64,000 nucleotides of DNA, from NCBI GenBank assembly GCA_025350815.1, contig JANXXE010000218.1, positions 19,574 through 83,573 on the forward strand, written 5' to 3'. The position numbers and the translations under genes were made by a program. The notes beneath the pieces were generated by a model. That model had not been told where the DNA came from, searched no databases, and worked only from the letters and a program-made list of their open reading frames with translations. This document shows positions 11,048 to 40,839 of the stretch, in pieces (the stretch's first letter is position 1; each line of letters starts with the position of its first letter). This DNA comes from Myxococcales bacterium (GTDB taxonomy: Bacteria > Myxococcota_A > Polyangia > Fen-1088).

Positions 11048-12073
11048 CTACCGCCGCAGAGTCCGCCATCCGTGCCGGCGTCCCGACCTCCAGCGCTCGA
11101 CAACATCCTCGTAGACCTTGCGCAGACGCGCGGCGCTGACGTCGACCGAAAACGCGGCGCGGATCCGCTCGGGCCCGTTCGAGCGCCGGCCGGCCTCCAG
11201 CACGTCCTTGAGCGCGGCGGCCAGGGACTCGGGCTCGGGGCTGGCCACCAGACCGGGCGTGACGCCCTTCAGAACGTGCTCGACGTCACCAACCGGGACC
11301 GACACCACGGGCACGCCGCAGGCGACGGCCTCCTTGACGACGTTGGGCGAGCCCTCGTGCTGGCTGGTCAATAGCAGGCAGTCAGCGGCGTTCATGTGCA
11401 CCGGCATCAGCTCTGGCGGCACTTGCTCGATGGTCGCGAGACGGGCGGGAAGGCCCAGTTCCGCCAGACGGCGGACGGCCGCCTGGGCGCGGTCGAAACG
11501 CTTGATGGTGCGGTGCCGGGACGCCCCGAACAGCACGACGGTCTCCGCGGGATCCCAGCCAAGCTGCCTGCGGCATGCCGCCTTGTCGAGGGGGCGAAAG
11601 GCAGCCGTGTCGACACCCGCCGGAATGACGTACGCCCGCTGGCGGTCGCGTGCAAGCAGCAGCCCCTGCCGTAACTGTTCGGACCGCGCCACGATGGCGT
11701 CGGCGTTGGGCGCGGCCAGCTGAGAAAACACCGCTGCCAGCGCACCCACGACCTTTTCAACCGGCGGATCCCGCCGCGCCGGCCCCAGCAAGTCCGAGCC
11801 ACCAAAGGTCAGCACCAGCGGCACGGGGCAGCCGAGCGCCGAGGCGAACGCCCCGACGGAACCGAAGTAGACGTTGACCACGTCGGGGCGGCTGGCAGCG
11901 ACGTGGTCGCGAAAGGCGGCCCAGTCCTTGTGTGGCGTCCGCCGGTAGGCCGTGGCGTGCTCCTCCACATCCAGACCCAGCGCCCGCAGCGCCAGCACTT
12001 CACGCCGCACGAAGATGCCGGCGAAGGGTGAATCGGGCCGGGGCCAGATGTTCGACACAGCGAGGACTTTCAA
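11048..12073 (-). CDS. glycosyltransferase family 4 (GT-B)
   Basis: EGSPNVVKEAVACGVPVV matches the GT4 C-terminal E-x7-E region. The probable TTG start at 12073 (LKVLAVSNIWP) avoids a 44-nt overlap with the downstream gene; the track ORF starts at 12142. Confidence 0.7.
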   Translation of the reverse strand: MKVLAVSNIWPRPDSPFAGIFVRREVLALRALGLDVEEHATAYRRTPHKDWAAFRDHVAASRPDVVNVYFGSVGAFASALGCPVPLVLTFGGSDLLGPARRDPPVEKVVGALAAVFSQLAAPNADAIVARSEQLRQGLLLARDRQRAYVIPAGVDTAAFRPLDKAACRRQLGWDPAETVVLFGASRHRTIKRFDRAQAAVRRLAELGLPARLATIEQVPPELMPVHMNAADCLLLTSQHEGSPNVVKEAVACGVPVVSVPVGDVEHVLKGVTPGLVASPEPESLAAALKDVLEAGRRSNGPERIRAAFSVDVSAARLRKVYEDVVERWRSGRRHGWRTLRR

Positions 12074-12098: not shown

Positions 12099-12824
12099 TT
12101 ACGGCCGGTCGCGCAGCCGCAGAAAGTATTCCGCCAGGACAAGATCCGCTTCCGTGTCGATGTTGGCGGAACGCTCGACCGGCATGATGTGGCCCAGACA
12201 GCGCGCGCCCTTGAAGGAATTCTTGTTCATAAGAACGTCGCGACGGGTGGCGTACAGGGCGCCGTTGACCATGTACACCTTGGGCAGGCTTTGGCGCGGC
12301 GGGTTCTCGATCTCGGACGGCTCATAGTCCAGCAGCATCCCGTCGGCGAACTTCTTCATCTTTCGCGGGTGCCAGTTGTCGACGTCGATGACACTGATGA
12401 TGCCGTCGGCCCCCTCGGCCGCCAGACGTCCGAGCGCCGTGACGAGATCCTCGGCTGACCGCAGCGGCGTCGTCGGCTGCAGCATGGCAACGTAGTCATA
12501 CGGACTGCCGGTCAACGCCTCCATCTGTTTGACGGCGTGCTGAATGGTCGGGACCGCCAGCGCGCCATCCGTGGCCAGATCGGCCGGCCGCAGGAACGGC
12601 ACCTCGGCGCCCGCCTCAAGGGCAATGTCGCGGATGCGCGGATCGTCCGTCGACACGACGACGTTGGCGAACATGCCCGACTTCTGGGCGGCCTCGACGG
12701 TGTACGCCAGCAGCGGGCGGCCACCCAGTGGCCTGATGTTTTTGCCCGGCACCCCCTTGGAGCCGCCGCGCGCCGGGATCACCGCCAAATTGCGCGGGCG
12801 TCCCCCCGTCGGGTGGACCGTCAT
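12099..12824 (-). CDS. acylneuraminate (nonulosonic acid) cytidylyltransferase, NeuA/CTP_transf_3 family
   Basis: N-terminal AVIPARGGSKGVPGKNIRPLGGRPLLAYT is the canonical CMP-NeuAc/CMP-Kdo synthetase motif. Start ATGA-overlaps the NeuB-like gene. Confidence 0.8.
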   Translation of the reverse strand: MTVHPTGGRPRNLAVIPARGGSKGVPGKNIRPLGGRPLLAYTVEAAQKSGMFANVVVSTDDPRIRDIALEAGAEVPFLRPADLATDGALAVPTIQHAVKQMEALTGSPYDYVAMLQPTTPLRSAEDLVTALGRLAAEGADGIISVIDVDNWHPRKMKKFADGMLLDYEPSEIENPPRQSLPKVYMVNGALYATRRDVLMNKNSFKGARCLGHIMPVERSANIDTEADLVLAEYFLRLRDRP

Positions 12825-13780
12825 GACAGGGCCTTGTCCTCCCAGTTGTAGATGAAGCCGCCCGGTACGGGCGCCTGACTTGCAAAGCGGCCCCGGTAAT
12901 AGTCCCGGTTCAGCAATTCTTCAGGCGACAGCGCGCGCACGGGCGAGCCGCGCATGGCAGAAGCCTCGGGGATCTCGCGCGCCACGTAGTCGGCGATTTC
13001 GTTGCGCGGGGCGCGGGCCCAACGGACAAGCTCGGCCAGCTGGCCCGGATCGATCGACACCGGACCATCCCTGGTGAGGTCGGGCGGCAACACGCGAAAG
13101 TGCCGTTCCACCACATCCGCCCCCATGGCCAGCGCCCCGATGGACGCCTTCAGTCCGTCGCGGGCCACCAGGCTGTGGTCGGAAAATCCCACACTGGGCG
13201 TGAACTGGCGCAGCCATTCCAGACGGGCCAGATGCATCTGATCGAGGGGCGTGGGGTAAATGGTCACGCAGTGAAGGAAGGTGAAGTTGGTCGGCGCCAG
13301 CACCTTCGCCGCAGCCGCAATCTCCTCGTCGAAGGTGGCGCCGGTGGAAACATAGATGTGCTTGAACCGGCCGACCAATTGGCGCAGCAACGGCAAGCTG
13401 GCGCAGTCGTAGCTCGGTACCTTGATCTCATCGTAGCCCAGCTTGACCACGTCATCGACGGCGGCGCGGCTGAAGACCGACGTCAGGGCGCCCGTGCCCC
13501 AGCGCTTGCATTCCTCGCGGAAGAACGCCTCGTCGTCGACCGACAACTCCAGCGGCTTCAGTCGATCATATTCGGCCGCGTAGGGCCGCTTGATTGCTTT
13601 CTTCGCGCCGCCCTCGACGATCCCTTCTTCAAACCTTTCCCGGCGTGTCAGCTCGCGCACGCGGATGGTCTGCACCTTGGCGAAATCGGCGCCAGCCTCG
13701 GCGACCGCATGAATCATCTCGCTTAGCAGCGTGCGGCCGCCACCGTGGTTCTGACAAAGCTCTGCGATTACCTTGGCCAA
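12821..13780 (-). CDS. N-acetylneuraminate synthase family protein (NeuB-like nonulosonic acid synthase, no SAF domain)
   Basis: IAELCQNHGG ... AGADFAKVQ matches the IAEIGxNHNG/KFQ core of the NeuB TIM barrel. At 319 aa it is shorter than classical NeuB. Confidence 0.7.
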   Translation of the reverse strand: MAKVIAELCQNHGGGRTLLSEMIHAVAEAGADFAKVQTIRVRELTRRERFEEGIVEGGAKKAIKRPYAAEYDRLKPLELSVDDEAFFREECKRWGTGALTSVFSRAAVDDVVKLGYDEIKVPSYDCASLPLLRQLVGRFKHIYVSTGATFDEEIAAAAKVLAPTNFTFLHCVTIYPTPLDQMHLARLEWLRQFTPSVGFSDHSLVARDGLKASIGALAMGADVVERHFRVLPPDLTRDGPVSIDPGQLAELVRWARAPRNEIADYVAREIPEASAMRGSPVRALSPEELLNRDYYRGRFASQAPVPGGFIYNWEDKALS

Positions 13781-13882
13781 CGAGTTCCTCCCGCCTTGAC
13801 GGCCCCCTGCCCATACTACGATCCCGTGCCGCGGGGCAAGGCGCCGCGTCGACGAAATATGCTAAAAGGCGCTACGCTACCG

Positions 13883-15103
13883 ATGCGCATTCTGCTGCTG
13901 ACCCAGTATTTTCCGCCCGAGATCGGGGCGCCGCAGCGACGGCTGTCCGATCTGGTGACGCGCCTTGCGACCATGGGACACGAGTTGTCGGTGCTGACCG
14001 CCATGCCGAACTACCCAGGCGGCGTGGTGCAGGAGGCCTATCGTGGACGCGTTTTCGCGCGCGACGACTGGAACGGTGTGCCGGTCGCCCGTTCGTGGAT
14101 CCTGGCCAGCCCGCGGCCGGGCATGGCGCCCAAACTGGCGACGTATTTTTCGTTCACGCTGTCGTCGCTGGTTGCGGGCCTGCTGGATGGCACCCCCGTC
14201 GACATCGTACTGACGGAATCGCCGCCGCTGTTCTTGGGGCTGACGGGAATTGCACTGGCCCGGCGCAAACGCGCAGCCTTCGTGTTCAACGTCGCTGACC
14301 CATGGCCGAAAGCCGCGATCGAGCGCGGTATGCTGAAGCACCCGGCGGCGATAGCCGCAGCCACCGGCCTTGAAGAATGGATCTATTCGAAGGCCGCCCT
14401 GGTGCTGACGCAATCCGAATCCATGCAGCGGGACATTGCCTCGCGCACGGGCCATCCCCACGTCGTGCATTTTCCCAACGGCATCGATCTGAACCTTTTC
14501 GGGCCGGCAAAGGCGGATGCCGGAACGCTGGCCGAGCTGGGCCTGGCGGGCAAGTTCGTCGTTGGCTACGCGGGACTGCATGGTCCGGGACAGGGCCTGG
14601 ACGTGATTGTGAATGCGGCGGCCGGACTGGCCGACCTGCCGGATGTTTGTTTTGCGCTGTTCGGTGACGGGCCTGACAAAGATCGCCTGCAAAAGGCGGC
14701 GGCGCACCTGCCCAACGTGAAGTTTTTCCCGCCACGGCCGCCCAACACCATTCCGGCGCTGACGGCCGCCTGGTCCGCCGGCGCCGTAACCTTGCGCGAC
14801 GGTGCGTCGTTCGAAATGTGCGTGCCGTCGAAACTGTTCGAGGCCATGGGCTCCGCAATTCCCGTTGTGATGGCGGCCGACGGCGAAGCCGCCGACATCG
14901 TACGCGACTGCGGCTGCGGGCTGGCGGTTCGGGCGGGCGATGCCGCGGGCTTCGGCGCCGCCGTGCGGAAGCTGCACGCGGACGCGGGCCTGCGTCGCAA
15001 GCTCGGCGCGCAGGGGCGACAGGCCACGGAACAAAGGTACGATCGCCAGCGCATCGCCACCGAGGTAGAAAAGTTTCTCGAGCAAGCAAGGCTGGACGCG
15101 TGA
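13883..15103 (+). CDS. glycosyltransferase family 4 (WcaI-like)
   Basis: N-terminus MRILLLTQYFPPEIGAPQRRL. C-terminal GT4 motifs are present. An alternative ATG lies at 13859, and the 13745 track start is unlikely. The gene is divergent from the NeuB-like gene. Confidence 0.75.
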   Translation: MRILLLTQYFPPEIGAPQRRLSDLVTRLATMGHELSVLTAMPNYPGGVVQEAYRGRVFARDDWNGVPVARSWILASPRPGMAPKLATYFSFTLSSLVAGLLDGTPVDIVLTESPPLFLGLTGIALARRKRAAFVFNVADPWPKAAIERGMLKHPAAIAAATGLEEWIYSKAALVLTQSESMQRDIASRTGHPHVVHFPNGIDLNLFGPAKADAGTLAELGLAGKFVVGYAGLHGPGQGLDVIVNAAAGLADLPDVCFALFGDGPDKDRLQKAAAHLPNVKFFPPRPPNTIPALTAAWSAGAVTLRDGASFEMCVPSKLFEAMGSAIPVVMAADGEAADIVRDCGCGLAVRAGDAAGFGAAVRKLHADAGLRRKLGAQGRQATEQRYDRQRIATEVEKFLEQARLDA

Positions 15104-15768
15104 CCGACCGGACCGAGCGCTGGAAGCGCGTTGTCGATGTCGCGATCTCGGGCGCACTACTGATTGAACTTGCACCGCTGTTCGGTCTCATCGGCCTTGG
15201 TATCCGGGCCGAGACCCCAGGACCGATGTTCTACCGCTCGCGCCGCATGGGGCGGCACGGCGTGCCCTTCGACATGCTGAAGTTCCGATCGATGGTGGTC
15301 GCGGCGGCCGAAGCGGGCCCGATTACAAAGCCCGGCGACGCGCGCATCACGCGCCTTGGGGCGTGGCTGCGCCTGTTCAAGATGGACGAACTACCGCAAT
15401 TGCTGAATGTCTTTCGCGGCGACATGAGCCTGGTCGGCCCCCGGGCGGAGGACGTCCAGATCGTCGAGGACTTCTACACCGACGAACAACGACGGGCGCT
15501 GACTGTGCGGCCCGGAATGACGGGCCTCGGTCAGGTTCGATTCTTCCCCGACATGACGGGCGAAGTTCCCGCAGGCGCCGATCCGATGGCCTACTACCGG
15601 GATGTTCAGCTCAAGCGCAAGCTGGACGTCGATCTGGAATACGTGGACCGCGTGTCCGTGCCGCTGGATCTCGCGCTGCTGGCGAAGACGGCTTATTGCG
15701 TTCTGGTGAAGTCCTGGTGGATCCTTCTCAAAGATCCGCCGTCCGAGCTGCGACAATCCAGGACCTGA
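15100..15768 (+). CDS. sugar phosphotransferase (bacterial sugar transferase, PglC/WcaJ C-terminal type)
   Basis: GTG start at 15100 forms a GTGA overlap with the GT4 stop. One N-terminal TM, then the PF02397-like core ...FDMLKFRSM...DELPQLLNVFRGDMSLVGPRA. Confidence 0.8.
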   Translation: MTDRTERWKRVVDVAISGALLIELAPLFGLIGLGIRAETPGPMFYRSRRMGRHGVPFDMLKFRSMVVAAAEAGPITKPGDARITRLGAWLRLFKMDELPQLLNVFRGDMSLVGPRAEDVQIVEDFYTDEQRRALTVRPGMTGLGQVRFFPDMTGEVPAGADPMAYYRDVQLKRKLDVDLEYVDRVSVPLDLALLAKTAYCVLVKSWWILLKDPPSELRQSRT

Positions 15769-15793
15769 CACAAACAAAGGATTTGAAAGCGTG

Positions 15794-16963
15794 ATGGCCT
15801 ATCCCCGCAAACCCCCACGACCGATCCAACCTGCGCGCCAGCTTTTCCCGGACGAGGACATCGCCTTCATCCAGGGCGAGACCGCACGTCTGCTGCGCGA
15901 ACGCGTGACCCTGGGCCCCTGGGTCGAGCAGTTTGAACGTCTCGGCGCCGCGTCGGCCGGAACCAAGCATGGCCTGGCCGTGAACAACTGCACGACGGCG
16001 CTGGAAATCATTCTGCGGTCCATCGGCGTCGGCCCTGGCGACGAGGTCGTGGTCCCACCGCAGACCTTCGTGGCCACGGCATTTGCCGTGCTTCACGCCG
16101 GTGCACGCCCCACGTTCTGCGAGATCAACCCCAAGACGCATTGTCTGGACCCGAAGAGTCTGGCGGCCACCATCACGCCAAAGACGCGCGCCGCAATCCT
16201 GGTCCACATGGGGGGCCTGGTCACGCCGGACTTGCCCGAGATTGAACGCGTCTGCAAGGCGCGCGGCATCGCGCTGGTCGAGGATTGCGCGCACGCGCAC
16301 GGCTCCCAGAAAGGCGGCCGACCGGCCGGGTCCATCGGCGTGGCCGGCGCGTTCAGCTACTACGCGACGAAGGTCCTGACCGCCGGTGAAGGCGGCCTTA
16401 TCACCACCAACGACGACAAGCTGGCCGAGGTGCTGCGCTGCTACCAGGCCCGCGGGCAGGACCTGTCCGTGCACGACGAAGAAGTTTTCATTCGCCCCGG
16501 GCGCAGTTGCCGCATGACTGCGTTTTCCGGTCTGTGCGGCGTCACCCAGTACAAACGCCTGGACGAGTTCGTCGCCCGCCGCAACCGAACAGCCGGTCTT
16601 TACGATCACGCCCTGCAAGCAGGCGCCCCGGCGGTCGAGCTTCTGCCCGTGCCGCAAGACACCAGGCACAGCTACTGGAAGTACACGATGAACCTTCCGA
16701 AAGGCGTCTCGCGACTGGACCTGCAGGCGCTGCTGGCCAAGGATTATGGCGTGCCCCTGACGTGGTCCTACTGGCCGCCCGTGCACCTGATGCCCGTGAT
16801 GAAGGACCTGTGTGGCGGCAAGCCGGGCGATCTTCCTATCACCGAGGACATCATGAGCCGCAACGTCAGTCTGCCCATGCACGCTGCGCTGGACGACAAC
16901 GACGCCACCTATATCGCCGACGCGTTCGTGGACGCCTTCGGTCGGATGCGGGGCGCCCGGTGA
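15794..16963 (+). CDS. DegT/DnrJ/EryC1/StrS family PLP-dependent sugar aminotransferase (no. 1)
   Basis: Whole-length resemblance to DegT-family enzymes, including the ...SFYATKVLTAGEGG... region around the PLP lysine. Confidence 0.8.
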   Translation: MAYPRKPPRPIQPARQLFPDEDIAFIQGETARLLRERVTLGPWVEQFERLGAASAGTKHGLAVNNCTTALEIILRSIGVGPGDEVVVPPQTFVATAFAVLHAGARPTFCEINPKTHCLDPKSLAATITPKTRAAILVHMGGLVTPDLPEIERVCKARGIALVEDCAHAHGSQKGGRPAGSIGVAGAFSYYATKVLTAGEGGLITTNDDKLAEVLRCYQARGQDLSVHDEEVFIRPGRSCRMTAFSGLCGVTQYKRLDEFVARRNRTAGLYDHALQAGAPAVELLPVPQDTRHSYWKYTMNLPKGVSRLDLQALLAKDYGVPLTWSYWPPVHLMPVMKDLCGGKPGDLPITEDIMSRNVSLPMHAALDDNDATYIADAFVDAFGRMRGAR

Positions 16964-17877
16964 CAGCGACACCCACTGCCCGCGTCGCCGTGACCGGCTG
17001 CCACGGTTACGTCGGCGGCCACCTGGTAGAAAAGCTGCGCGCCGCCGGCCACGATGTGGTCGGCATCGATCACCGACCACAAGGGGACGTGCCCGTGCCG
17101 CAGTTCGCGCGCATGGAACTGGCCGACCCCGTTGCGGTCGAGACCTGCGCGAAGGCGATCGAAGGGTGCACCGCCGTATTTCACCTCGCATCCCGGCAGC
17201 CTTTCAGCTGGGATTTGCATCCTTTCGTGCGCGGCAACGTCATGCGCACTGCCCACTTGCTCGAGGCGATGCGTGTGGCGAAGGTGCCCCGCCTCATCCA
17301 TTCGTCCACGGTCGCGGTCTACGGCCGCCCCGAAACCCTACCGCTGCGCGAGAACACGCCGCTACATCCAGAAAACCCCTATGAGGTCACGAAGGCCCAG
17401 GCCGAGTCCCTTGCGGGCCTGTACGCCAGCAAGGCGGGACTCAATGTCGCCATTCTTCGCTATCCCAGCGTCTACGGCGGCCGGGCTCGCTTCGGCGCGA
17501 TGTACACCTTCATCGACGCAACCTTGCGTGGCGCCCCGATTCGTCTGTTTGCCAAGGGCACCGCCCGTCGCGATCTGGTTCACGTCTTCGACGTCGTCGC
17601 CGCCAACCTGCTGGCGCTGCAGCACGCGCAGGCGCAGCCAGTCGCCACCTACAATATTGCCAGCGGCCAGGCACCCATGAGCCACGAATTGGTCGAACTG
17701 ATCTTTGACGTCCTTGGCCAGAAGACAACGGTCGAGATGGCCGAGGATCCCAACTGGCGCTCGCAGGATCTGGTCGTTGACATCGGCCGGGCGCGTACCG
17801 AGCTCGGCTTTACCCCGATGCCCTTGGCCGAAGGCATCGCGGAGCTGGGGGCGGCCGTCCGCCAGGAACGAAAATAG
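16960..17877 (+). CDS. NAD-dependent epimerase/dehydratase (SDR family)
   Basis: GTG at 16960 forms a GTGA overlap with the DegT stop. N-terminal VAVTGCHGYVGGHL Rossmann motif. SDR extended-family layout. Confidence 0.75.
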   Translation: MTATPTARVAVTGCHGYVGGHLVEKLRAAGHDVVGIDHRPQGDVPVPQFARMELADPVAVETCAKAIEGCTAVFHLASRQPFSWDLHPFVRGNVMRTAHLLEAMRVAKVPRLIHSSTVAVYGRPETLPLRENTPLHPENPYEVTKAQAESLAGLYASKAGLNVAILRYPSVYGGRARFGAMYTFIDATLRGAPIRLFAKGTARRDLVHVFDVVAANLLALQHAQAQPVATYNIASGQAPMSHELVELIFDVLGQKTTVEMAEDPNWRSQDLVVDIGRARTELGFTPMPLAEGIAELGAAVRQERK

Positions 17878-17885
17878 CCCGCGGA

Positions 17886-18637
17886 TGAAGATCGTCGCCC
17901 ACCAGCCTGAGTACATTCCCTGGCTCGGCTATTTCGCCAAGCTCAGCGTGGCGGATGTCTTCTTCTTTTCGGACCACCTCCAGTACGCGATCAAGGATTT
18001 CCAGAACCGGAACAACATCCTTCAGGGCGGCGGCAAGCAGATGCTGTCCATTCCGGTGCTGACCAAGGGGCGCGTCGACCAGGCCATCCGCGACGTCGAG
18101 ATCGAGGCCAACACGCCCTGGGCGCGCAAGCACATGCTGACCCTGCGCCACGCCTATCACCGGCACCCGCACTTTTCGCGCTACGCACCCCGCCTGGAGG
18201 AAATCTACGCCCGCCGTTGGGACAGGCTGTGCGAACTCAACGTCACGCTGATCAAGCAGATCGCCGAATGGTTGGACATCAAGGTCCCGATGCGCCTGTC
18301 GTCCGAGCTTTCGCTGGTCGAGCACAAGACGCGGTTGCTGATCGAGATGTGCGAAAAGTGTCCGGCCGACACCTTCGTCTCGGGCCTGGGCGCCGCCGCT
18401 TACGTCGACCCTGCGCTGTTCGCCGAAAAACACCTCAATCATCTTTTCTTCCGATTCACCCACCCGACCTATCCCCAGAAGGGGGCGACGTCGGGCTTCG
18501 TGTCCCATCTGTCCGCGCTGGATCTGCTGTTCAACTGCGGTCCGGACGCCGCCCTGCTGTTGCAGCAAGCCGTCGCTGCGTCGACCTTGACGGCGGAGGT
18601 TCCGTCGGCACCCGTGACCGCCGATCCGGCGCCCTGA
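17886..18637 (+). CDS. WbqC-like family protein
   Basis: N-terminus MKIVAHQPEYIPWLGYFAKL... is typical of WbqC-family proteins found in O-antigen clusters. The ATG at 17886 follows the upstream stop. Confidence 0.65.
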
Positions 18638-19797
18638 TGGAACGCCTTGACGCCAGTTCTGAAGAAGGGCCGTACCACGCCGCGTTCGGCAATCTGCTCG
18701 CCGGCCGGCCGAGTGGGCTGCGCGGCTCTGGCGAATCTATCGATGGCTTCGGGGCGTGGACCGGCGAACATCGTCTGGCGCCCTACGCCGCTCACCTGGC
18801 CATCACCTGTGACCCGATAGTCGCTGCCGCCCTCAAGCCGGCGCTGCGAAAGGCGGCCATCAAGGATCTATTGCACGCGACGCCGACCGGCCGGCTGCTC
18901 CGCGCCCTGGCCGACAACGGGGTCAGGCCCATCGTCTTCAAGGGGCTGGGCGTCGGCCATCTATACTACCCGGAACCCTATCTACGCCCGCTCGGTGATC
19001 TCGACATCTTGTTTCGACCCGCAGACATCCCGGCCATGCTTCGGACCTGCCTGGCACTGGGCTACCGCCACCAGAATTCCGACCCCGTGGTCGTCGCGTC
19101 GTATACCGAGGCCCACTACAACATTCCGCTGGTCCATCGCGAGTTCGGCTTGCTAGAGGCCCACCATCGTCTGTGGGGCGACTGCGAAAACGCGTTCACC
19201 GACGCTGTATTCGCGCGTTGTCGGCCCGTCTCGATCCTGGGCGCCCTGGGCGAACGCCCGACCGGGGTTGACCTGTTCATCATGCTGTCCGTGCACTTTG
19301 GCATCAGCAACATCGGCAGCAGCTGGATGTGGCTCGCCGATCTGGTCCTCATCGGTCGCACCCTGGATGCAGCCGAGTGGGCGGACCTTGTGGCCACGGC
19401 CAATCGCCATGGCCTGCAATTGTTTGTCGCCCTCGCTCTTGGCGCCCTACGGAAACTGTGGAACGTGACCTTCCCTGCGCAGGTCGACCCGGCAGAGGAC
19501 AGGCTACGTGCGACATTGCGCCCCCCCGAACAACTGGCCTTCAACCGGGCGCTCGCGCTGGTGGGCAGCCGCCGCCTGGGAAAGCACTTTCTAATCGTCG
19601 CGCGCCGCCTCAGCCACCGGCCCGTTCGCGCCGCCAGCCATCGGTTCGAGTGGCTGGTGTGCCATCCGGGCGTCGTCGCCGATGAGCTAGGGGTCTCGTC
19701 AGCGTCGCCGTGGTTTCCACTTTACCGTCTCAAGCACCCCCTGTCGCGCCTGACAAGGGCCGCCGACTCGATCTATAAGGCTGTGACCCGCACATGA
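18637..19797 (+). CDS. uncharacterised nucleotidyltransferase-family protein (NTP_transf_5-like)
   Basis: ATGA overlap with the WbqC stop. It carries a GDLDILF motif resembling the nucleotidyltransferase G-x-D-x-D signature. Function is unknown. Confidence 0.4.
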   Translation: MERLDASSEEGPYHAAFGNLLAGRPSGLRGSGESIDGFGAWTGEHRLAPYAAHLAITCDPIVAAALKPALRKAAIKDLLHATPTGRLLRALADNGVRPIVFKGLGVGHLYYPEPYLRPLGDLDILFRPADIPAMLRTCLALGYRHQNSDPVVVASYTEAHYNIPLVHREFGLLEAHHRLWGDCENAFTDAVFARCRPVSILGALGERPTGVDLFIMLSVHFGISNIGSSWMWLADLVLIGRTLDAAEWADLVATANRHGLQLFVALALGALRKLWNVTFPAQVDPAEDRLRATLRPPEQLAFNRALALVGSRRLGKHFLIVARRLSHRPVRAASHRFEWLVCHPGVVADELGVSSASPWFPLYRLKHPLSRLTRAADSIYKAVTRT

Positions 19798-21005
19798 CCG
19801 TCCCGTTCTTTCGACCTTCGATTACTGAACTAGAAATCGAAGAGGTGCTTGCCAGCCTGCGCTCTGGCTGGCTGACGACCGGCCCCCGCGTAAAAGAGTT
19901 CGAGCGCCGCTTTGCCGAGACCGTCGGGGCCAAACACGCGATCGCATTGAATTCCTGCACGGCGGCCTTGCATCTGGCGCTTGAAGCGGTGGGGGTGGGG
20001 CGCGGCGACGGCGTGCTCGTACCGACGATGACCTTCGCCGCCACCGCCGAGGTCGTGCGCTATTTCGACGCCGTGCCCATCTTCGTCGATTGCGACCCCG
20101 TCACCTTGTGCCCCGATCCCACTTCCATCCGCGCGGCCCTTGAGGCCCTGAACGCTGGCCGGACCTGGCCCGGCGTCCCGCCCGGCACAAAGCCTCCCCG
20201 CGTTTTGGTGACCATGCACTACGGCGGCCTGGTCGGGGCGATGGGTGAATACCGCCGCCTGGCGGACGATTTCAACCTGCAGCTGATCGAGGATGCCGCC
20301 CACACCATGCCGGCCGCTTTTCGGGCCGACGCAACGGCGCCCTGGGAAGCGGTCGGTGGCGCCAGCCTGGTCACGTGTTTTTCCTTCTACGCGAACAAGT
20401 GCATCACGACGGGCGAAGGCGGCATGGCCACCACCAATGACGATGCGGTGGCGGCGCGCATGCGCTTGATGTCCCTGCACGGCATGGATCGCGACGCCTG
20501 GAAGCGCTACACCGATCAGGGCTCGTGGTACTACGAGGTCGTCGCACCCGGCTTCAAGTACAACATGACCGATGTGGCGGCGGCCCTGGGTCTGGCCCAG
20601 CTTGGGCGCCATCAGACCTTGTGGGCCGAGCGCAGACAGGTCGCCGGCCGACTGACCGCCGCCCTTGCCGACCTTCCGCTCGAACTACCGTTCGAGCCGC
20701 CCGACCGACAGCACTCGTGGCACCTGTACTCCGTCAAGCTCAGATTGAACGAGCTGCGCATCGGCCGCGATCAGTTCCTCGATGCGCTGAAGGCCAGGGG
20801 CATCGCCCACTCTGTGCACTGGCAGCCCCTGCACATGATGCCCTACTACCGCGAGCGCTACGCCTTGCGCGCCGAGGATTTTCCCGTCGCCGCATCCCTG
20901 TGGCCGCGGCTTGCATCGCTGCCCATCTTCGCCGGCATGACAACCGACGAACTGGCCGAGGTGACATCGACCGTGGCAGCGTTACTGCGCGCCAACCTGC
21001 GCTGA
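19794..21005 (+). CDS. DegT/DnrJ/EryC1/StrS family aminotransferase (no. 2)
   Basis: ATGA overlap with the upstream gene. DegT-like over its full length (FRPSITELEIEEV...; FYANKCITTGEGG). Confidence 0.8.
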   Translation: MTVPFFRPSITELEIEEVLASLRSGWLTTGPRVKEFERRFAETVGAKHAIALNSCTAALHLALEAVGVGRGDGVLVPTMTFAATAEVVRYFDAVPIFVDCDPVTLCPDPTSIRAALEALNAGRTWPGVPPGTKPPRVLVTMHYGGLVGAMGEYRRLADDFNLQLIEDAAHTMPAAFRADATAPWEAVGGASLVTCFSFYANKCITTGEGGMATTNDDAVAARMRLMSLHGMDRDAWKRYTDQGSWYYEVVAPGFKYNMTDVAAALGLAQLGRHQTLWAERRQVAGRLTAALADLPLELPFEPPDRQHSWHLYSVKLRLNELRIGRDQFLDALKARGIAHSVHWQPLHMMPYYRERYALRAEDFPVAASLWPRLASLPIFAGMTTDELAEVTSTVAALLRANLR

Positions 21006-22091
21006 AGCAAGGCGCCTGACCGTCGCGATGATCCGCTCGGCCGCTTTGCCGTCCCACAACTCGGGGATTCCGCCCTTCTTCCAGGCCCCGGCGAAGACTC
21101 GCTCCAGTGCCGGCGCGATGGCGGCGGGGTTGGTGCCGATGATTTCGTTGGTGCCGACCAGTGCCGTCTCCGGCCGTTCCGTGTTGTCTCGCAAGGTCAG
21201 ACACGGCACACCGAGGTACGTCGTTTCTTCCTGAATGCCGCCCGAATCCGTCAGCACCGCGCGCGCGTTCTTGACCAGGTACATGAACTCGAAATACCCC
21301 ATCGGCTCGACCTGGTGAATGTTCGACCAACCCGGCATCTGCGCCAGGGCCTTGCGCGTGCGCGGATGCACCGGAAAGATCACCGGCGCCCCCCGGACGG
21401 CGGCCGACACTTCATCGAGCAACCTCCGCAGCGTAACCGGGACGTCCACATTCGCCGGCCGGTGCAACGTGACGACGGCGTAGCCTCCAGCCGCGAGCCC
21501 CAGGTCGCCCCACACGGCCGGAGGCACAAGCCGCGGCAGGCTGAACACCAGACTGTCGATCATCGTGTTGCCCACGAAGTGGATGCGCTCCTCGGACGTA
21601 CCCGAGCGCCGAAGCTGTTCGTTCGCGTGCCGCGAGGTCGTGAAAAACTGGTCGGCCAGCGCATCGGTGACCATCCGGTTGATCTCCTCCGGCATGGTCA
21701 TGTCGAACGATCGAATACCGGCCTCGACGTGGGCCACGGCGGTGTTCATCTTCTTGGCGACGATGGTGCAGGCCATCGTGGACGTCACATCGCCGACAAC
21801 CAGCAGCAGATCGCACGGATTCGCCGCCAGGTCCTTCTCGAACCGCACCATGATCTGCGCGGTCTGCTCGGCCTGGCTGCCCGATCCCACCTCAAGATTC
21901 GCCTGCGGCGGCGGAATGCCCAGTTGGTCGAAGAACTGTCCGCTCATGTTGGCGTCGTAGTGCTGCCCGGTGTGCACCAGCCTCACCGAAATGTCTGCGC
22001 CATCGCTCGCATTGACGCGCCGGATCTCCCGCATGAGCGGAGCGATCTTCATGAAGTTCGGCCGGGCGCCGGCCACCAGGGTCAGCCGCAT
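20982..22091 (-). CDS. UDP-N-acetylglucosamine 2-epimerase (WecB/NeuC family)
   Basis: LVAGARPNFMKIAPL ... HTGQHYD ... HVEAGIRSFD ... DSGGIQEE are canonical Epimerase_2 motifs. The gene converges on DegT no. 2 with a 24-nt overlap. Confidence 0.85.
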   Translation of the reverse strand: MRLTLVAGARPNFMKIAPLMREIRRVNASDGADISVRLVHTGQHYDANMSGQFFDQLGIPPPQANLEVGSGSQAEQTAQIMVRFEKDLAANPCDLLLVVGDVTSTMACTIVAKKMNTAVAHVEAGIRSFDMTMPEEINRMVTDALADQFFTTSRHANEQLRRSGTSEERIHFVGNTMIDSLVFSLPRLVPPAVWGDLGLAAGGYAVVTLHRPANVDVPVTLRRLLDEVSAAVRGAPVIFPVHPRTRKALAQMPGWSNIHQVEPMGYFEFMYLVKNARAVLTDSGGIQEETTYLGVPCLTLRDNTERPETALVGTNEIIGTNPAAIAPALERVFAGAWKKGGIPELWDGKAAERIIATVRRLASAQVGAQ

Positions 22092-22114
22092 CGCAGTTCC
22101 TGTTCGACCGGCAG

Positions 22115-22711
22115 CTAGAACATGCGTTCGTCGACGACCAGGACATCACCTGGGAAGATCGCGACGTTGGGTGCCCGGCCCTCGCTAATGTCAGCGACGG
22201 GATAGGATCGGCTGACCACCGATCCCTTGTCCTCGCGCCTCAGCGTGACCTTGTTCTTCGCCGCGATTCCAGTGAATCCGCCCGCGGCCGCAATGGCATC
22301 GATGATGGTCATGTTCGAGAAGTACACCACCGCACCGGGTTTCAGCACCTGCCCCAGCACCGAGACCTTGCGGCTGTTCCATTCATGCACGGTCACGGTG
22401 ACCTGAGGATTCTTGATGAATCCGTCCTTTAATTTCTCCGTGATCATCGCCTGAACCTCGCCGCTGGTCATGCCCACCACCTTGATGCGACCTATCAACG
22501 GGTAGTCCACCATACCGTCGCCCGCGATCCGGTACAGCCCAGTCAGATCGCCCTCAAGGAAGACCCGGGTCTCAAAAACGTCGTCCACGCCCAGTCGCTC
22601 ATCGGGCGCCAGCGTCATGACCTCCGCGGGTACCGGCGCGGGGATCTGCCGCGAGGCGCATCCCACCTGCGCGATAAACAGCACGACGGGCCAGGCCCTC
22701 AAGCGAGTCAT
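22115..22711 (-). CDS. polysaccharide export protein (Wza/GumB-like, Poly_export + SLBB)
   Basis: A lipoprotein-like signal (…IAQVGCAS) is followed by ...GDGMVDYPLIGRIKVVGMTSGEVQAMITEKL... and a PGDVLVV motif typical of Wza-family exporters. The start is taken at the internal Met at 22711. Confidence 0.7.
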   Translation of the reverse strand: MTRLRAWPVVLFIAQVGCASRQIPAPVPAEVMTLAPDERLGVDDVFETRVFLEGDLTGLYRIAGDGMVDYPLIGRIKVVGMTSGEVQAMITEKLKDGFIKNPQVTVTVHEWNSRKVSVLGQVLKPGAVVYFSNMTIIDAIAAAGGFTGIAAKNKVTLRREDKGSVVSRSYPVADISEGRAPNVAIFPGDVLVVDERMF

Positions 22712-22774
22712 TGCCCCGGATTGTAGTCCGTCCAGCCAGTCGTCGCAATGTCGCGGCAATGTCGCGGGGCTCCT

Positions 22775-23497
22775 CTATTGGGGGTCTGAGTCTCCACGAC
22801 GGGGCGGCTTCAGGCGCGACAGCAAGACCTCCGCCAGGACAAAGTCGACTTCCTCGTCGATATCCACGGCCCGATCCCGCGGGACGACCACCCCGGCGAC
22901 ACGTTCGCCATACAAAGAATTCCGGTCGAGGACTGCGCGCGCCGTCGCGTAGACAGAGCCCGAGCGCACGTAGGCGGGGGCAAGATCCTGGCCTCGCGCG
23001 CCCTCAGTCTCGGCGGCCTGTGCGAAATAGGGCTCCAGCCAGTTTCCCCGCAACCTCTTCAGCTTCGCCGGGTGCACGGGGCCAACCGGCACAATGGTGA
23101 CCGCGGAGTGGGCCCCCGCCGCCACGGCCTCCAGACACGAGTCGATGTCCGCCGAGCTAACCAGGGGGTTGGTGGCCTGCACAATGGCCGTGGCGTCGAA
23201 GGGTCCCTCGCCTGCGGCCTCCAGCGTCCTGACCGCGTGCCGAACGGCGTCGATGCTGGGGCTGTCGTCGCGGGCCAGTTCCGGCGGACGCGCGAGCGCC
23301 AGGCGTGGGTCAATCGCCCGCACGATCGCCAGGACCTCGGGGTCCTCGCTTGAGACCACACAACGGGTCGCCAGGCGCGCGCCCATGGCCGCGTCGACAG
23401 CGTAGCTCAGCAGGGGTCGCCCGAGCAGTAACCGAACATTCTTTCGCGGCAAGCGCTTGGATCCACCCCGCGCCGGGATAACGACTAGGGAGGTCAC
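22775..23497 (-). CDS. acylneuraminate cytidylyltransferase family protein (second NeuA-like paralog)
   Basis: LVVIPARGGSKRLPRKNVRLLLGRPLLSYAV is the CTP_transf_3 motif. It is distinct from the 12099..12824 copy. Confidence 0.75.
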   Translation of the reverse strand: MTSLVVIPARGGSKRLPRKNVRLLLGRPLLSYAVDAAMGARLATRCVVSSEDPEVLAIVRAIDPRLALARPPELARDDSPSIDAVRHAVRTLEAAGEGPFDATAIVQATNPLVSSADIDSCLEAVAAGAHSAVTIVPVGPVHPAKLKRLRGNWLEPYFAQAAETEGARGQDLAPAYVRSGSVYATARAVLDRNSLYGERVAGVVVPRDRAVDIDEEVDFVLAEVLLSRLKPPRRGDSDPQ

Positions 23498-23612: not shown

Positions 23613-24275
23613 ATGAATGTCCTGGTCCTGGCGGCTCACCCGGATGACGAAACCCTGGGTGCTGGCGGTGCGATGGCCCACGCCATTGAGCGCGGCGACC
23701 AGGTGCACGTAATCGTCGCCTGCGGCTCCGCACGTGTGGACGTTGTCGATGATGGTCGATTCGCAGCCCAGAAAGCCTCAGAACTTGAGACCGCCATGCG
23801 CTCACTCGGTGTCACCTTCGAGGCGCTGGGCTTGCCCGACCAAAAGCTAGACGTCGTTCCCCTGGTCGATCTTGCTCGCGCCATCGAAAACACCATGGCT
23901 AGATTCCGCCCGGCTACGGTGCTTACGCACTTCGCTGGAGACGTAAACCAGGACCACCGGCGCGTGGCGGAGGCGACGCTAATCGCTTGTCGATGCGTTC
24001 CAGGCTCCCCCGTTCGCAGGCTAGCCTCGTACTTCGTGCCGTCCAGCACCGATTGGGGGGACCCGCAAGTCGGTTTCGTTCCCAACGCATTCGAAATCCT
24101 CGAAGAATCCCATGTCTCGGCCAAGCTGGCGGCGATGCGCTGCTATGCTTCCGAACTGAGGCCGGCGCCGCATCCCCGTTCGGAAAGGGGGATTCGAGCA
24201 GCGTTGGAGCATTTCGGCTCGCGTGTCGGCGCCGCCTATGCCGAACCTTTTGTGATCCTTCGCGAGTTGCTCTGA
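23613..24275 (+). CDS. PIG-L/LmbE family N-acetylglucosaminyl deacetylase
   Basis: MNVLVLAAHPDDETLGAGG contains the PIG-L AHPDDE motif. The ATG at 23613 sits inside the longer track ORF. Confidence 0.75.
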   Translation: MNVLVLAAHPDDETLGAGGAMAHAIERGDQVHVIVACGSARVDVVDDGRFAAQKASELETAMRSLGVTFEALGLPDQKLDVVPLVDLARAIENTMARFRPATVLTHFAGDVNQDHRRVAEATLIACRCVPGSPVRRLASYFVPSSTDWGDPQVGFVPNAFEILEESHVSAKLAAMRCYASELRPAPHPRSERGIRAALEHFGSRVGAAYAEPFVILRELL

Positions 24276-24390: not shown

Positions 24391-26367
24391 ATGAGCTCCC
24401 GGTTCTACTGGAAGTCAGCGCAGCTGGCCGTCGACGCCCTGGTCTGCGTCATGGCGTTCCTGGCCGCATACCTGATTCGTTTCGAGGGCATTTTGTCGGC
24501 CCCGACGCTCAAGCAGATGGCGCTGCTGATGCCCTACCTGGTGTTCGCGCGCCTGCTGTGCAATCAGATCCTGGGCGTCTATCGGATCGCCTGGCGTTAC
24601 GTGGGTCTGCGCGACCTGCGCACCTTCGTGATCGCTACCTCTCCAGCGACCGCGTTCTTTCTGATCCTACGTTTCGGCGTGGCCCCAAACACGGTTCTTT
24701 TTGGTCTTTGGTTGGACGTCTTTCGCATTCCCCTGTCGGTGGTCGCTCTTGAAGGCATGCTTTTCTTCCTGGGAACCGTCGGGGCACGGGTCTTGCGGCG
24801 CATCACGCTGGACGTTCAGCGAGCTAAGGTCAGTAGTGGCCCGAAGAAGGTCCAGCAAAAGCCGATTCTTCTTATCGGCGCCGGGCGAGCCGGCGTCATC
24901 GTCGCGCGGGAAATTCGTTCGCGGCCCGACATGGGCCTCAAGATCGTGGGTTTCATCGACGACGACCCGATGAAATTGGGACAGATTATCGACGGTCTTC
25001 AGGTCCTCGGACCGACCGCCGACTTGCCGCGACTGGCACGCCTGCACCACCTTGACCACGTGGTCATCTCAATCGCCAGCATTCCAGGTGTGGACATGCG
25101 CCGGATTCTCGCAGTGTGCGAGTCAATACCCATTCGTCCCCAGGTGGTGCCGGGTATTTATGAGTTGGTGGAAGGTAGCGTCAGCATCAACCGTATACGC
25201 GACGTGGAGTTCGAGGATCTGCTGGGCCGCTCCCCGGTGAACCTGGACACGGAGGGTGTCGCCGCGTTCTTGGGCGGTAGCCGCATCGTCGTGACCGGTG
25301 CTGGCGGGTCGATTGGCTCTGAGATGTGCCGCCAGGTGTGTCGATTCGGCCCCGCGTCGCTTATTCTCGTCGAGCGCTACGAGAACAATCTTTTCGAAAT
25401 CGAACGGGAGCTGCGCTCAAGCTACCCCAACTTGCAGATCATTCCCTGCGTTGCCGATATCACCGATGCCCCACGAATGGCGTCGATATTCGAGACGCAG
25501 GCGCCCCAGGTGGTGATCCACGCGGCCGCCCACAAACACGTTCCGATGATGGAAAGTAATCCGTCCGAAGCCGTCAAGAACAATGTCCGCGGCACCCGAA
25601 TGCTGGCCGAGTTGGCGGACCGACACAAGGCCGCCGTGTTCGTCATGATTTCGACGGACAAGGCCGTCCGGCCGAAGTCCGTGATGGGCGCGTCCAAGCG
25701 CATGGCCGAACTATACGTGCAGTCGCTGGCTCAGAACTCAGGCACGCGCTTTATGACGGTCCGTTTTGGCAACGTTCTCGGAAGCGCAGGCAGTGTGATT
25801 CCTATTTTCAAGAAGCAGATCGCCGCCGGCGGCCCCATCACCGTCACACACCCCGAGATGAAGCGCTACTTTATGACCATTCCGGAGGCCGCACAGTTGG
25901 TGTTGCAAGCGGCCTCCATGGGTTCAGGGGGGGAGATCTATGTGCTCGACATGGGCGAGCCCGTGAAGATCGTCTCGCTGGCTGAGGAACTAATCCGCCT
26001 GAGCGGCCTCAAGCCTTACGACGACATCGAGATTACTTTTACGGGCGTTCGGCCGGGCGAGAAACTGTTCGAGGAGATTTCCCTGGATGACGAGAATCTC
26101 ACCAAGACCCAGCACGCGAAGATCTACGTAGGCAAGAACAGACCTCTCGCGGCCGAGGGCGTGGCGGAGAAGGTACGTCTGTGCGAACAGCTCATCGACG
26201 AGCCCGATGCGACGACGGTCCGAGCGACCCTGATAGACCTGGTACTGGAAGACCGAGCCGAAGGAGAGCAGCGGACAGCTCAGGTGGGTGAAGATCAGGA
26301 AGGCGCGTCAGGCTCCAGCGATCGAGGCTTGACGACAGCGCTTCGAAAGCCCGAGCTCCTGCACTAG
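24391..26367 (+). CDS. membrane-anchored UDP-GlcNAc 4,6-dehydratase (PglF/CapD/WbpM/FlaA1 family)
   Basis: Four N-terminal TM helices, then two Rossmann motifs (ILLIGAGRAGVIV and IVVTGAGGSIGSE) and the CapD core. Confidence 0.85.
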   Translation: MSSRFYWKSAQLAVDALVCVMAFLAAYLIRFEGILSAPTLKQMALLMPYLVFARLLCNQILGVYRIAWRYVGLRDLRTFVIATSPATAFFLILRFGVAPNTVLFGLWLDVFRIPLSVVALEGMLFFLGTVGARVLRRITLDVQRAKVSSGPKKVQQKPILLIGAGRAGVIVAREIRSRPDMGLKIVGFIDDDPMKLGQIIDGLQVLGPTADLPRLARLHHLDHVVISIASIPGVDMRRILAVCESIPIRPQVVPGIYELVEGSVSINRIRDVEFEDLLGRSPVNLDTEGVAAFLGGSRIVVTGAGGSIGSEMCRQVCRFGPASLILVERYENNLFEIERELRSSYPNLQIIPCVADITDAPRMASIFETQAPQVVIHAAAHKHVPMMESNPSEAVKNNVRGTRMLAELADRHKAAVFVMISTDKAVRPKSVMGASKRMAELYVQSLAQNSGTRFMTVRFGNVLGSAGSVIPIFKKQIAAGGPITVTHPEMKRYFMTIPEAAQLVLQAASMGSGGEIYVLDMGEPVKIVSLAEELIRLSGLKPYDDIEITFTGVRPGEKLFEEISLDDENLTKTQHAKIYVGKNRPLAAEGVAEKVRLCEQLIDEPDATTVRATLIDLVLEDRAEGEQRTAQVGEDQEGASGSSDRGLTTALRKPELLH

Positions 26368-27720: not shown

Positions 27721-27792
27721 CTAGGCTTTGAAGGCTGGGCTGGTCGAGAGGAGAGAACGGAAAAAATATCGGTCTTCTGTGGTATCGGGCGG

Positions 27793-28389: not shown

Positions 28390-28565
28390 GCGCAACCTCA
28401 GCTGGAAATTGGTCGTTCCATGATATCTGACTGCGCGCACTATAGGGTGGCAGAAGCGGGAGTGTCAACATCCTGTGCTGCTGAAACGTCCGCCGAAAGA
28501 CTGATGTTCCGCGAACCTAGCCCTGCGCTGGGGTGGCAGGTCACCAGTTTTCTTTCGGCCGGTCC

Positions 28566-29984: not shown

Positions 29985-30005
29985 AAGGTGAATTCCCCTG
30001 GTGGT

Positions 30006-30344: not shown

Positions 30345-30352
30345 GGGAACCT

Positions 30353-40671: not shown

Positions 40672-40839
40672 TGGATGCCCGGGAGAATGGTGCGACTACC
40701 TTTTGAAGTAAAGGCATTTTGCGGACGGGTCGCACTGCTTTTGCTTGACCGCCATCGTTGCGCGAACGATAGATCGGCCTCGGACATGGCTGCCTCAGAG
40801 CAATTGCCCCCGGCGGGCATTTCAAAAGTCGTTTCGAAC

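Follow-up and report, generated by a model that had tools for sequence, protein, structure and literature searches.

Introduction

Sialic-acid-like sugars, the nonulosonic acids (NulOs), shape how phages, predators and immune systems see bacterial surfaces, and their environmental diversity is largely unmapped. It is already established that one organism, or even one gene cluster, may have several synthetases that activate NulOs with cytidine monophosphate (CMP), as in Leptospira, Campylobacter jejuni and Candidatus Kuenenia. Here, we analyzed a 64-kb stretch of DNA from a Myxococcales bacterium (contig JANXXE010000218.1, positions 19,574 to 83,573; hereafter, the window), in which two cytidylyltransferase (CT) genes, CT1 (12099..12824, minus strand) and CT2 (22775..23497, minus strand), are found in the same polysaccharide locus. 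Less ordinary in this locus is that CT1 is part of a large uncharacterised module, defined by a NeuB-family synthase without a SAF domain and an N-I-D motif in the CT, and that CT2 is under selection without a local synthase.

Judged by described gene content, the closest published parallel is the legionaminic acid (Leg)-like cluster of Ca. Kuenenia stuttgartiensis, which, like the window, combines one neuB with a deacetylase gene and two CT (legF) homologs (bioRxiv 10.64898/2026.04.20.719630). Of these CTs, one is beside neuB, while early dehydratase and aminotransferase genes surround the other. The organism was found to contain CMP-NulOs with a free amine (bioRxiv 10.64898/2026.04.20.719630) and, therefore, deacetylation precedes glycan assembly. 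Kuenenia has legG, for a hydrolysing epimerase, and a formyltransferase, while the window has neither, only the non-hydrolysing WecB; conversely, the window differs in its SAF-less synthase and in the presence of WbqC and NTP_transf_5 proteins.

The CMP-NulO synthetases of C. jejuni are PseF, LegF/PtmB and NeuA1. As a rule, each CT in C. jejuni and Leptospira comes with its own synthase, whereas in the window a single synthase accompanies two CTs. Like the window, these organisms have two or more NeuA-family cytidylyltransferases in a single organism or cluster, and there this correlates with more than one type of NulO. For Leptospira interrogans, the description drawn on here has a gene named neuA2 in a sialic acid cluster, reports detection of N-acetylneuraminic acid (Neu5Ac) and a di-N-acetylated NulO, and mentions no second neuB (PMC3438082).

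CT1 and CT2 Are Predicted CMP-Nonulosonate-Type Cytidylyltransferases

A first-pass annotation had proposed two paralogs here, each with a PARGGSK...KN signature. Both open reading frames are real: the 241-aa CT1 and the 240-aa CT2 match Pfam CTP_transf_3 (PF02348) with 84.2 and 63.3 bits (gathering cutoff 22.6), and their third-position GC (0.86 and 0.80, respectively) is what is expected of real genes at 65% GC, the value for the window sequence. The signature is evident in both translated N-termini ("...NLAVIPARGGSKGVPGKN" for CT1 and "VTSLVVIPARGGSKRLPRKN" for CT2). The sequences are also as different as had been stated, with 39% identity over 226 aa (E 9e-50).

The top PDB sequence matches of both proteins are CMP-Neu5Ac and CMP-pseudaminic acid (Pse) synthetases. 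AlphaFold (AF2) models were built on family alignments (predicted local distance difference test, pLDDT, 92.7 for CT1 and 91.9 for CT2) and compared with known structures using Foldseek. Template modelling (TM) scores were 0.80–0.87 against 1eyr (the Neisseria enzyme, NmCSS), 6ifd (V. cholerae) and 9ftc (A. caviae PseF), and lower against KdsB. As in these three structures, both models have a nucleotide-binding alpha/beta domain with a protruding dimerisation domain. The solved synthetases 1eyr, 6ifd, 9ftb/9ftc and 9t4z (the PpNeuA CMP-deaminoneuraminic acid, or CMP-Kdn, synthetase) share with CT1 and CT2 the fold, the P-loop-like PARxGSK...KN motif, Q104 and Y179 (NmCSS numbering is used throughout). 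They differ in being only 24–37% identical to the window enzymes, neither of which clusters with any of them. Sequence and models together lead us to predict that CT1 and CT2 have CMP-nonulosonate-type cytidylyltransferase activity.

Assignment to named clades was achieved in part. CT1 falls in a clade linked to SAF-less NeuB proteins and CT2 in a rare sub-clade, but neither is a PseF or KdsB equivalog and the context does not suit LegF. The PseF model TIGR03584 (cutoff 205.7) scored 160.4 bits for CT1 and 117.5 bits for CT2, and no PseG, PseH or PseI equivalog was found in the locus. The pathway context that would identify LegF or NeuA, that is, a linked NeuC/LegG plus a SAF-bearing NeuB/LegI, is not that of either gene; LegF can be assigned by context only, given that NCBIfam has no curated LegF model and our tree no characterised LegF sequence.

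One option raised by the first-pass annotation was a NulO plus a sugar resembling 3-deoxy-D-manno-octulosonic acid (Kdo). Capsule loci with an extra CMP-Kdo synthetase exist, such as those of E. coli with KpsU beside KdsB, and in one comparison locus (L175, 1-5064), which shows no NeuB, a KpsC/KpsS-type gene and an ABC exporter lie between two NeuA-like CT genes. However, neither enzyme came near the KdsB model cutoffs (155–281 bits), the top scores being 46.5 bits (CT1) and 44.7 bits (CT2), KdsB entries in the PDB search were weaker matches (E 1e-5 to 1e-9), confined mostly to the N-terminal nucleotide-binding region, and the structural match was poorer than that to NeuA or PseF. There is also no KdsA, KpsF or KpsC/S gene in the window. 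The idea that one copy is a capsule-specific CMP-Kdo synthetase is thus close to refuted.

Different Clades, Conserved Active Sites and Purifying Selection

CT1 has thousands of relatives, many of them 60–70% identical across phyla. CT2 has two at 65–71% identity and the next at about 50%, which defines a sub-clade of three members at 65% identity or more, with the motifs D-I-D, R-G-Q and Q-A-T-N. Clustering placed CT1 and CT2 in separate groups, neither with a solved reference. A neighbour-joining tree was built from every CT in the loci retrieved (159 sequences). In this tree, the CT1 clade has 46 members, 44 of which adjoin a SAF-less NeuB, and its inner nodes have 83–84% bootstrap. CT2 groups with L010 and L011 (99% bootstrap) and this group joins a 13-member clade (67%) that includes CTs from operons with NeuB, NeuC and a 2-hydroxyacid dehydrogenase. 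The closest relative of CT2, L010 (71% identity), has a true NeuC gene immediately upstream (240 bits, cutoff 235.9). On these comparisons, CT1 and CT2 are non-orthologous: each belongs to an orthologous group of its own, with its own typical gene surroundings.

Motif counts were taken from the untrimmed alignment. R12 and K21, the CTP-binding residues of the PARxGSK...KN motif, are present in both enzymes and invariant in all 159 aligned CTs. CT2 has Q104, Y179, D209 and D211 (D-I-D), and its arginine occurs as R-G-Q in an R-x-Q register. The R-S-Q form of this register is found in 36 of the 57 CTs adjoining other NeuB proteins, and R-x-Q is seen in A. caviae PseF as well; therefore, the apparent loss of R165 is an alignment offset. 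CT1 has P-R-Q, Q104, Y179 and every other NmCSS position with the exception of D209N (Asn is CT1 N221). It differs there from NmCSS, in which D209A is dead, D211A lowers kcat 15,000-fold and R165A is inactive (PMC2901514). Asparagine at 209 (N-I-D) is nevertheless invariant in the clade (120/120) and occurs in 50 of 56 CTs adjoining a SAF-less NeuB; therefore, it is a clade signature under selection and not a sign of decay of CT1. D-I-D is found in 50/57 CTs adjoining other NeuB proteins and D-I-N in all seven CTs of the NeuB, NeuC and 2-hydroxyacid dehydrogenase operons. The metal-binding motif hence varies with context, the N-I-D and D-I-N clades each having lost a different carboxylate.

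Ratios of nonsynonymous to synonymous substitution (dN/dS) against orthologs were 0.10 for CT1, 0.08 for its neighbouring synthase and approximately 0.16 for CT2; synonymous sites were close to saturated. For CT2, the proportion of nonsynonymous differences (pN) was 0.21–0.23 and that of synonymous differences (pS) 0.67–0.75. These values indicate purifying selection on both sets of orthologs, and we predict both enzymes to be catalytically competent. The CT2 sequence is identical across contigs assembled from three sequencing runs.

The first-pass annotation had reasoned that loss of catalytic residues in one copy, or a common orthologous group, would count against two separate enzymes. We found neither: apart from D209N in CT1, both copies retain their catalytic residues in the alignment, and they differ in cluster, clade and neighbourhood. 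A recent tandem-type duplication, or a pseudo-enzyme among the two, can draw on the shared family signature only, and is refuted by the 39% identity, the different clades and contexts, the occupation of all catalytic positions, the clade-wide nature of D209N and the purifying selection. CT1 and CT2 are accordingly predicted to be neither KdsB-like, nor recent duplicates, nor pseudo-enzymes. Since both keep their catalytic residues and fall in different orthologous groups, two distinct activities would be the most economical reading. That these activities yield two distinct CMP donors, one from CT1 and one from CT2, we regard as having about an even chance of being correct.

CT1 Belongs to a Module with a SAF-less Synthase

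The coupling of CT1 to a NeuB gene, which had also been noted before, holds in part. CT1 directly follows the synthase gene (12821..13780, minus strand; hereafter, NeuBs), with an ATGA stop/start overlap indicative of translational coupling. The synthase, however, is atypical: as a NeuB-family PEP (phosphoenolpyruvate)-condensing enzyme it scores 148 bits against a NeuB cutoff of 399.65 and 119 bits against a PseI cutoff of 340, which excludes it from both equivalogs. The SAF (antifreeze-like) domain, supplier of Arg314, is absent; the match stops at profile position 271 of 329, with Pfam NeuB as its only domain. NeuBs keeps the metal-binding Glu/His/His of NmNeuB as well as the PEP-site motifs, and ends with a conserved "ELLNRDYYRGRFAS..YNWE" tail in place of the SAF domain.

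This tail defines a large family of SAF-less NeuB proteins (the window, L006, L008, L009, L093 and L095–L174), in which E134 of NmNeuB is replaced by Asp. SAF-less NeuB homologs were described earlier in environmental bacteria, with no function assigned; they resemble NeuBs in having a NeuB domain only and the E134-to-Asp change, and the linked module of dehydrogenase, HAD, ManC-like protein and N-I-D CT described below is not mentioned there (PMC8208679). We found no functional assignment for this family in the searchable literature.

A metagenome scan with the SAF-less NeuB alignment returned 80 loci at 46–67% identity. A CT is located within 1.2 kb of NeuBs in 41 of the 49 testable loci, and the pairing recurs in L006–L009 and L093. 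Among the 19 metagenome loci in which NeuBs has 4 kb or more of sequence to either side, a dehydrogenase of about 570 aa is present in 17, a TagB-like protein in 10, a 2-hydroxyacid dehydrogenase in 7, an NTP-transferase plus HAD in 5 and, instead of the latter pair, a GT28/PseG-like protein in 4. All module genes are present in the window taken together with L094, a contig of the same organism that adds 8.8 kb to the left. The ManC-like NTP-transferase (3..485, plus strand; 67.5% identity to the L009 NTP_transferase) is cut at the window edge, leaving its 3′ part; the full 369-aa protein in L094 is Man-1-P guanylyltransferase-like (223 bits, cutoff 373). It is followed by a HAD-family hydrolase (493..1188, plus strand; GTG start at 493) that has 61% identity to the L009 HAD; the L094 gene call gives it 231 aa and a HAD_2 domain.

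The module dehydrogenase lies just left of window base 1 (L094, 6480-8195) and is also found in L093, L006 and L008. It scores 336 bits as a nucleotide-sugar dehydrogenase (cutoff 190), and its best specific models are two UDP-ManNAc dehydrogenases, both below cutoff. It has an intact catalytic cysteine and, at the N-terminus, an extension that matches KpsF/GutQ in the region containing CBS. We considered whether the enzyme could halt at the aldehyde and feed NeuBs; this is unsupported, as the catalytic motif GGxCxxKD is conserved.

The two partner sets of the dehydrogenase (ManC-like plus HAD, or GT28/PseG-like) suggest two routes to one substrate. A Kdn-like route through a phosphorylated intermediate fits the HAD and ManC-like partners, and the neuA plus neuB Kdn capsule of Serratia is a partial precedent for such a NeuBs–CT1 route. 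Against Kdn weighs the identity of CT1 to the solved CMP-Kdn synthetase 9t4z, 27–28% versus 33–36% to NeuA and PseF, and a simple Kdn route leaves the tightly linked dehydrogenase unexplained. A substrate derived from a uronic acid would explain it. Alternatively, the dehydrogenase and WecB may only supply an N-acetylmannosaminuronic acid (ManNAcA) acceptor, as in Tannerella forsythia.

We tentatively put forward, as a possibility that we rate well short of an even chance, that the NeuBs–CT1 module is a widespread and uncharacterised pathway to a CMP-ulosonic acid other than Neu5Ac, Leg or Pse. Candidate products may be a Kdn-like non-amino sugar or a dicarboxylic nonulosonate made from a hexuronic acid. 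In such a pathway the SAF domain would be swapped for an Arg/Tyr-rich tail, the CT would be active with its first metal-ligand residue replaced by Asn, and the synthase-less CT2 would add a further CMP donor, with one synthase feeding two activating enzymes.

A different arrangement was also observed repeatedly, namely a conserved operon of a SAF-bearing NeuB, NeuC, a PGDH-like 2-hydroxyacid dehydrogenase and a D-I-N CT (L004 3767-7675, L005 6823-10699, L013–L018 and L024), which spans Planctomycetes, Bacteroidota, Burkholderiales and Myxococcota. The PGDH-like type of dehydrogenase follows many CTs of the SAF-less module as well.

One Synthase, Two Predicted Activating Enzymes

CT2 heads a minus-strand operon with a Wza-type polysaccharide export gene (22115..22759, minus strand; Poly_export and SLBB), 16 bp further on, and wecB (20982..22091, minus strand), the last gene. 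It is divergent from a PIG-L/LmbE-family deacetylase gene. The neighbouring Wza gene and the divergent PIG-L gene had been noted in the first-pass annotation, to which we add wecB; PIG-L most likely starts at the ATG at 23613, not at 23457 (23613..24275, plus strand; Pfam 84.9 bits, called as 220 aa in L001). The Epimerase_2 gene of the operon is a WecB, a non-hydrolysing UDP-GlcNAc 2-epimerase (TIGR00236, 287 bits, cutoff 210), and not a NeuC (63 bits versus 236).

We hypothesize that the NeuBs module makes an ulosonic acid, which CT1, as its dedicated activator, would convert to a CMP ester, and that the substrate of CT2 is most likely another ulosonate, one that CT1 would reject. This other ulosonate may have the same backbone with a different N-substitution, for instance after de-N-acetylation, or it may be a second product of the single synthase, made from the amino-sugar branch (PglF, DegT, PIG-L). 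Two TagB-like paralogs would then draw on the two CMP donors. That the substrates differ, what they are and which transferase uses which donor are all inferred.

The TagB-like GT-B proteins 1 (1185..2633, plus strand; weak Glyphos_transf match) and 2 (2675..4045, plus strand; start according to the L094 gene call) are 45% identical over the C-terminal 310 aa, and their N-terminal alignment is not significant. Protein 1, like its paralog, is a candidate CMP-ulosonate transferase. Homologs are encoded near CT genes in L018, L024, L066, L015, L005 and L093. In T. forsythia, TagB-like enzymes add Pse or Leg derivatives to ManNAcA, and TFUB4_00887, the BFO_1060 ortholog, is the Leg-derivative transferase (PMC5420450). 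The CMP-Pse and CMP-Leg clusters of that species have TagB-like GT-B genes (Tanf_01245 and TFUB4_00887) beside NulO genes, as in the window. The transferase variants have a common C-terminal domain and distinct N-termini and are each specific for one NulO isomer, a pattern that the window pair echoes, and the ManNAcA acceptor could also be supplied here by WecB and the UDP-ManNAc-dehydrogenase-like enzyme. There are differences: T. forsythia has one transferase per strain and modifies a protein O-glycan, whereas both paralogs of the window are in one operon and the target would be a Wzy-type polysaccharide. We infer that two paralogs fit two CMP donors.

Several observations weigh against two donors with different substrates. 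No second NeuB, NeuC, PseG-like hydrolase or KdsA-type synthase was found in the window or the 8.8 kb to its left and, therefore, there is no visible separate substrate source for CT2. In four NeuBs loci with a second full-length CT (L105, L124, L131 and L134), a second NeuB lies about 1–2 kb from the CT, a pattern that the window breaks. CTs lacking a synthase nearby are nevertheless seen in other loci too, namely L092 and L175. PIG-L is present in only 3 of the 19 well-flanked NeuBs loci. The TagB-like proteins score 58 (protein 1) and 53 bits (protein 2) with the BFO_1060-family model NF046086, far under its cutoff of 200; both resemble that family and are at most putative members of it. 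Substrate specificity is not readable from sequence, and a characterised LegF is not among the sequences in the tree. Finally, tailoring on the CMP-sugar itself, by analogy with PtmG (PMC3766260) and Kuenenia, would make a second CT unnecessary. The earlier proposal of two distinct activated sugars, therefore, stands as far as the economy of two activities and the fit of two TagB-like paralogs go, and is weakened by the single synthase and the missing second ulosonate source.

Modification of the CMP-sugar, the other option in the first-pass annotation, has some support. Tailoring of CMP-bound NulOs is documented (PMC3766260; bioRxiv 10.64898/2026.04.20.719630), and homologs of PIG-L (L040, L052, L065 and L089) and of WbqC (L045, L062 and L081) recur next to NeuB in NulO loci. 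A literature search on WbqC returned nothing relevant; as a speculation, the WbqC-family protein may be PtmG-like, PtmG being an acetamidino-forming enzyme that acts on CMP-Leg. As a background sample we used a scan of genome contigs with the CT2-clade alignment, which ran on the generic PARGGSKR pattern. The matches listed were diverse CTs of at most 43% identity and not orthologs of CT2, and among them about 9 of 80 sampled loci had two CT genes, some of them with one NeuB in view.

The missing synthase could also mean that the locus holds only the activation step of a second standard NulO pathway (NeuC plus NeuB, Leg/Neu-type) encoded elsewhere in the genome. We consider this unlikely. In its favour, the relative of CT2 in L010 follows a true NeuC, the wider clade occurs in NeuB–NeuC–2-hydroxyacid dehydrogenase–CT operons, and the sequence inspected is limited to the 64-kb window and the 8.8 kb beside it. 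A split pathway would, however, be unusual, as CTs are generally near a synthase both in NeuBs loci (the 41 of 49 given above) and in most standard loci, and no degraded remnant of NeuB, NeuC, 2-hydroxyacid dehydrogenase or PseG was found in the window.

The same lack of degraded partner genes bears on whether CT2 is a redundant leftover, from an older NeuC/NeuB/CT2 module displaced by NeuBs and CT1, that now duplicates CT1 or is unimportant. The mosaic appearance of the locus, with two CT clades of different usual partners, is consistent with this, as are the rarity of the CT2 sub-clade and a drop in GC from about 0.65 to about 0.61 just past CT2. On the other hand, the CT2 frame is intact with conserved catalytic residues, pN is far below pS, the gene heads an operon with wza and wecB, and its sequence is the same in all three sequencing runs. 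Such a leftover is, in our view, improbable.

More improbable still is that CT2-like orphans act on a product that does not come from NeuB, such as an acidic or amino sugar of the WecB/dehydrogenase/PglF branch, or at an early step. The case for it comes from L092 (7743-14917), where a CT 48% identical to CT2 is encoded in an operon of the order SDR, TviB-like dehydrogenase, CT, C5-epimerase and SDR, with a WecB (50% identity to that of the window) and a Bac_transf gene as neighbours and no NeuB within 10 kb on either side. The first legF homolog of Kuenenia also sits between legB and legC, and Magnetospirillum has been reported to contain CMP-linked HexNAc-like species without a keto acid. 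CT2, however, keeps the residues for the ulosonate carboxylate and the metal (R-x-Q, Q104, Y179 and D209/D211), and its model superposes on CMP-NulO synthetases with a root-mean-square deviation of 2.4–3.7 Å. To our knowledge, no CTP_transf_3 enzyme uses a substrate other than a keto acid.

If the substrates of CT1 and CT2 do differ, the locus would be a compact system, with one synthase, two activators, two transferases and one deacetylase, in which to follow the splitting of donor specificity; if they do not, it is a routine mosaic polysaccharide locus. In either case, counting "NeuA/NeuB" genes is misleading, as CT1 marks SAF-less modules without an assigned product and CT2 is kept without a local synthase.

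Gene Content of the Locus and Its Surroundings

The gene map is based on Pfam and NCBIfam scans of the window together with the L094 contig, and indicates a predicted Wza/Wzc/Wzy-type exopolysaccharide or capsule locus. The left plus-strand operon consists of the CBS-domain nucleotide-sugar dehydrogenase just outside the window, the ManC-like and HAD genes and the two genes for TagB-like proteins. The CT1 operon, on the minus strand, starts with NeuBs (13780-12821) and CT1 and continues with a GT4 glycosyltransferase (11048..12073; candidate starts 12073 and 12058), a Wzc-like co-polymerase/tyrosine kinase (8696..10936; Wzz, GNVR and AAA_31) and a membrane protein with Wzy_C and TPR (6260..8641); the GT4 and Wzy_C plus TPR genes are syntenic in L009. 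On the same strand follow a methyltransferase (5488..6249; Methyltransf_23, L094 gene call and Pfam) and a Wzy_C-family polymerase/ligase-like membrane protein (4048..5487; 59.6 bits, nine transmembrane-like segments).

Seven genes at 13745-21005 form a plus-strand operon, with a 4-nt stop/start overlap at four of its six junctions. They encode, in order, a GT4 glycosyltransferase (13745..15103; start uncertain, between 13745 and 13883), a small PglC-type initiating phosphoglycosyl transferase (15100..15768; Bac_transf, Pfam 172 bits, also in NCBIfam), a DegT-family sugar aminotransferase (15791..16963; Pfam 330 bits, under the PseC, LegC and DesI cutoffs), an NAD-dependent sugar epimerase/dehydratase of the SDR type (16960..17877; Pfam, weakly GalE/LegB-like in NCBIfam), a WbqC-family protein (17885..18637; 229.5 bits), a protein of the uncharacterised nucleotidyltransferase family NTP_transf_5 (18637..19797; 115 bits) and a second DegT-family aminotransferase (19794..21005; Pfam 357 bits). 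The latter is PseC-like (332 bits, cutoff 423.5) and 32% identical to the first. The PIG-L gene, 115 bp from CT2, is followed by that of a PglF/CapD-like membrane-anchored UDP-GlcNAc 4,6-dehydratase (24391..26367, plus strand; Polysacc_synt_2, 393 bits, three transmembrane-like segments).

Between 4048 and 26367, two Wzy_C-family membrane proteins are encoded, one of them the TPR-repeat fusion, and no Wzx-type flippase of the Polysacc_synt or MurJ family was recognised in an otherwise complete Wza/Wzc/Wzy set. The locus as a whole yielded no N-acetyltransferase of the PglD, PseH or LegH type. A promoter and terminator scan gave counts not above those of shuffled sequence and thus adds nothing to the operon evidence.

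Past 26.4 kb, the genes look unrelated (beta-barrel, TonB/AgmX-like and giant TPR proteins, Obg, FHIPEP and housekeeping genes). Relatives of the Obg protein that carry a taxon label all come from Polyangia metagenome-assembled genomes, at 73–75% identity. A minus-strand block at 26386-37322, with GC of about 0.60–0.61, encodes an outer-membrane beta-barrel-like protein with a signal peptide, a secreted coiled-coil protein, three TPR proteins (417, 764 and 1188 aa) and a protein rich in lysine and glutamate whose C-terminus is TonB/AgmX-like. The block is reminiscent of a myxobacterial envelope or gliding-type complex. The FHIPEP (FlhA/type III export) protein at 40675-42942 (plus strand, 744 bits) adjoins an M16 peptidase and an MFS transporter; the window showed no further flagellar or injectisome genes. 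A third DegT-family aminotransferase (58543-59700, plus strand, 351 bits) stands alone by proline-biosynthesis genes, with the polysaccharide locus approximately 32 kb to its left.

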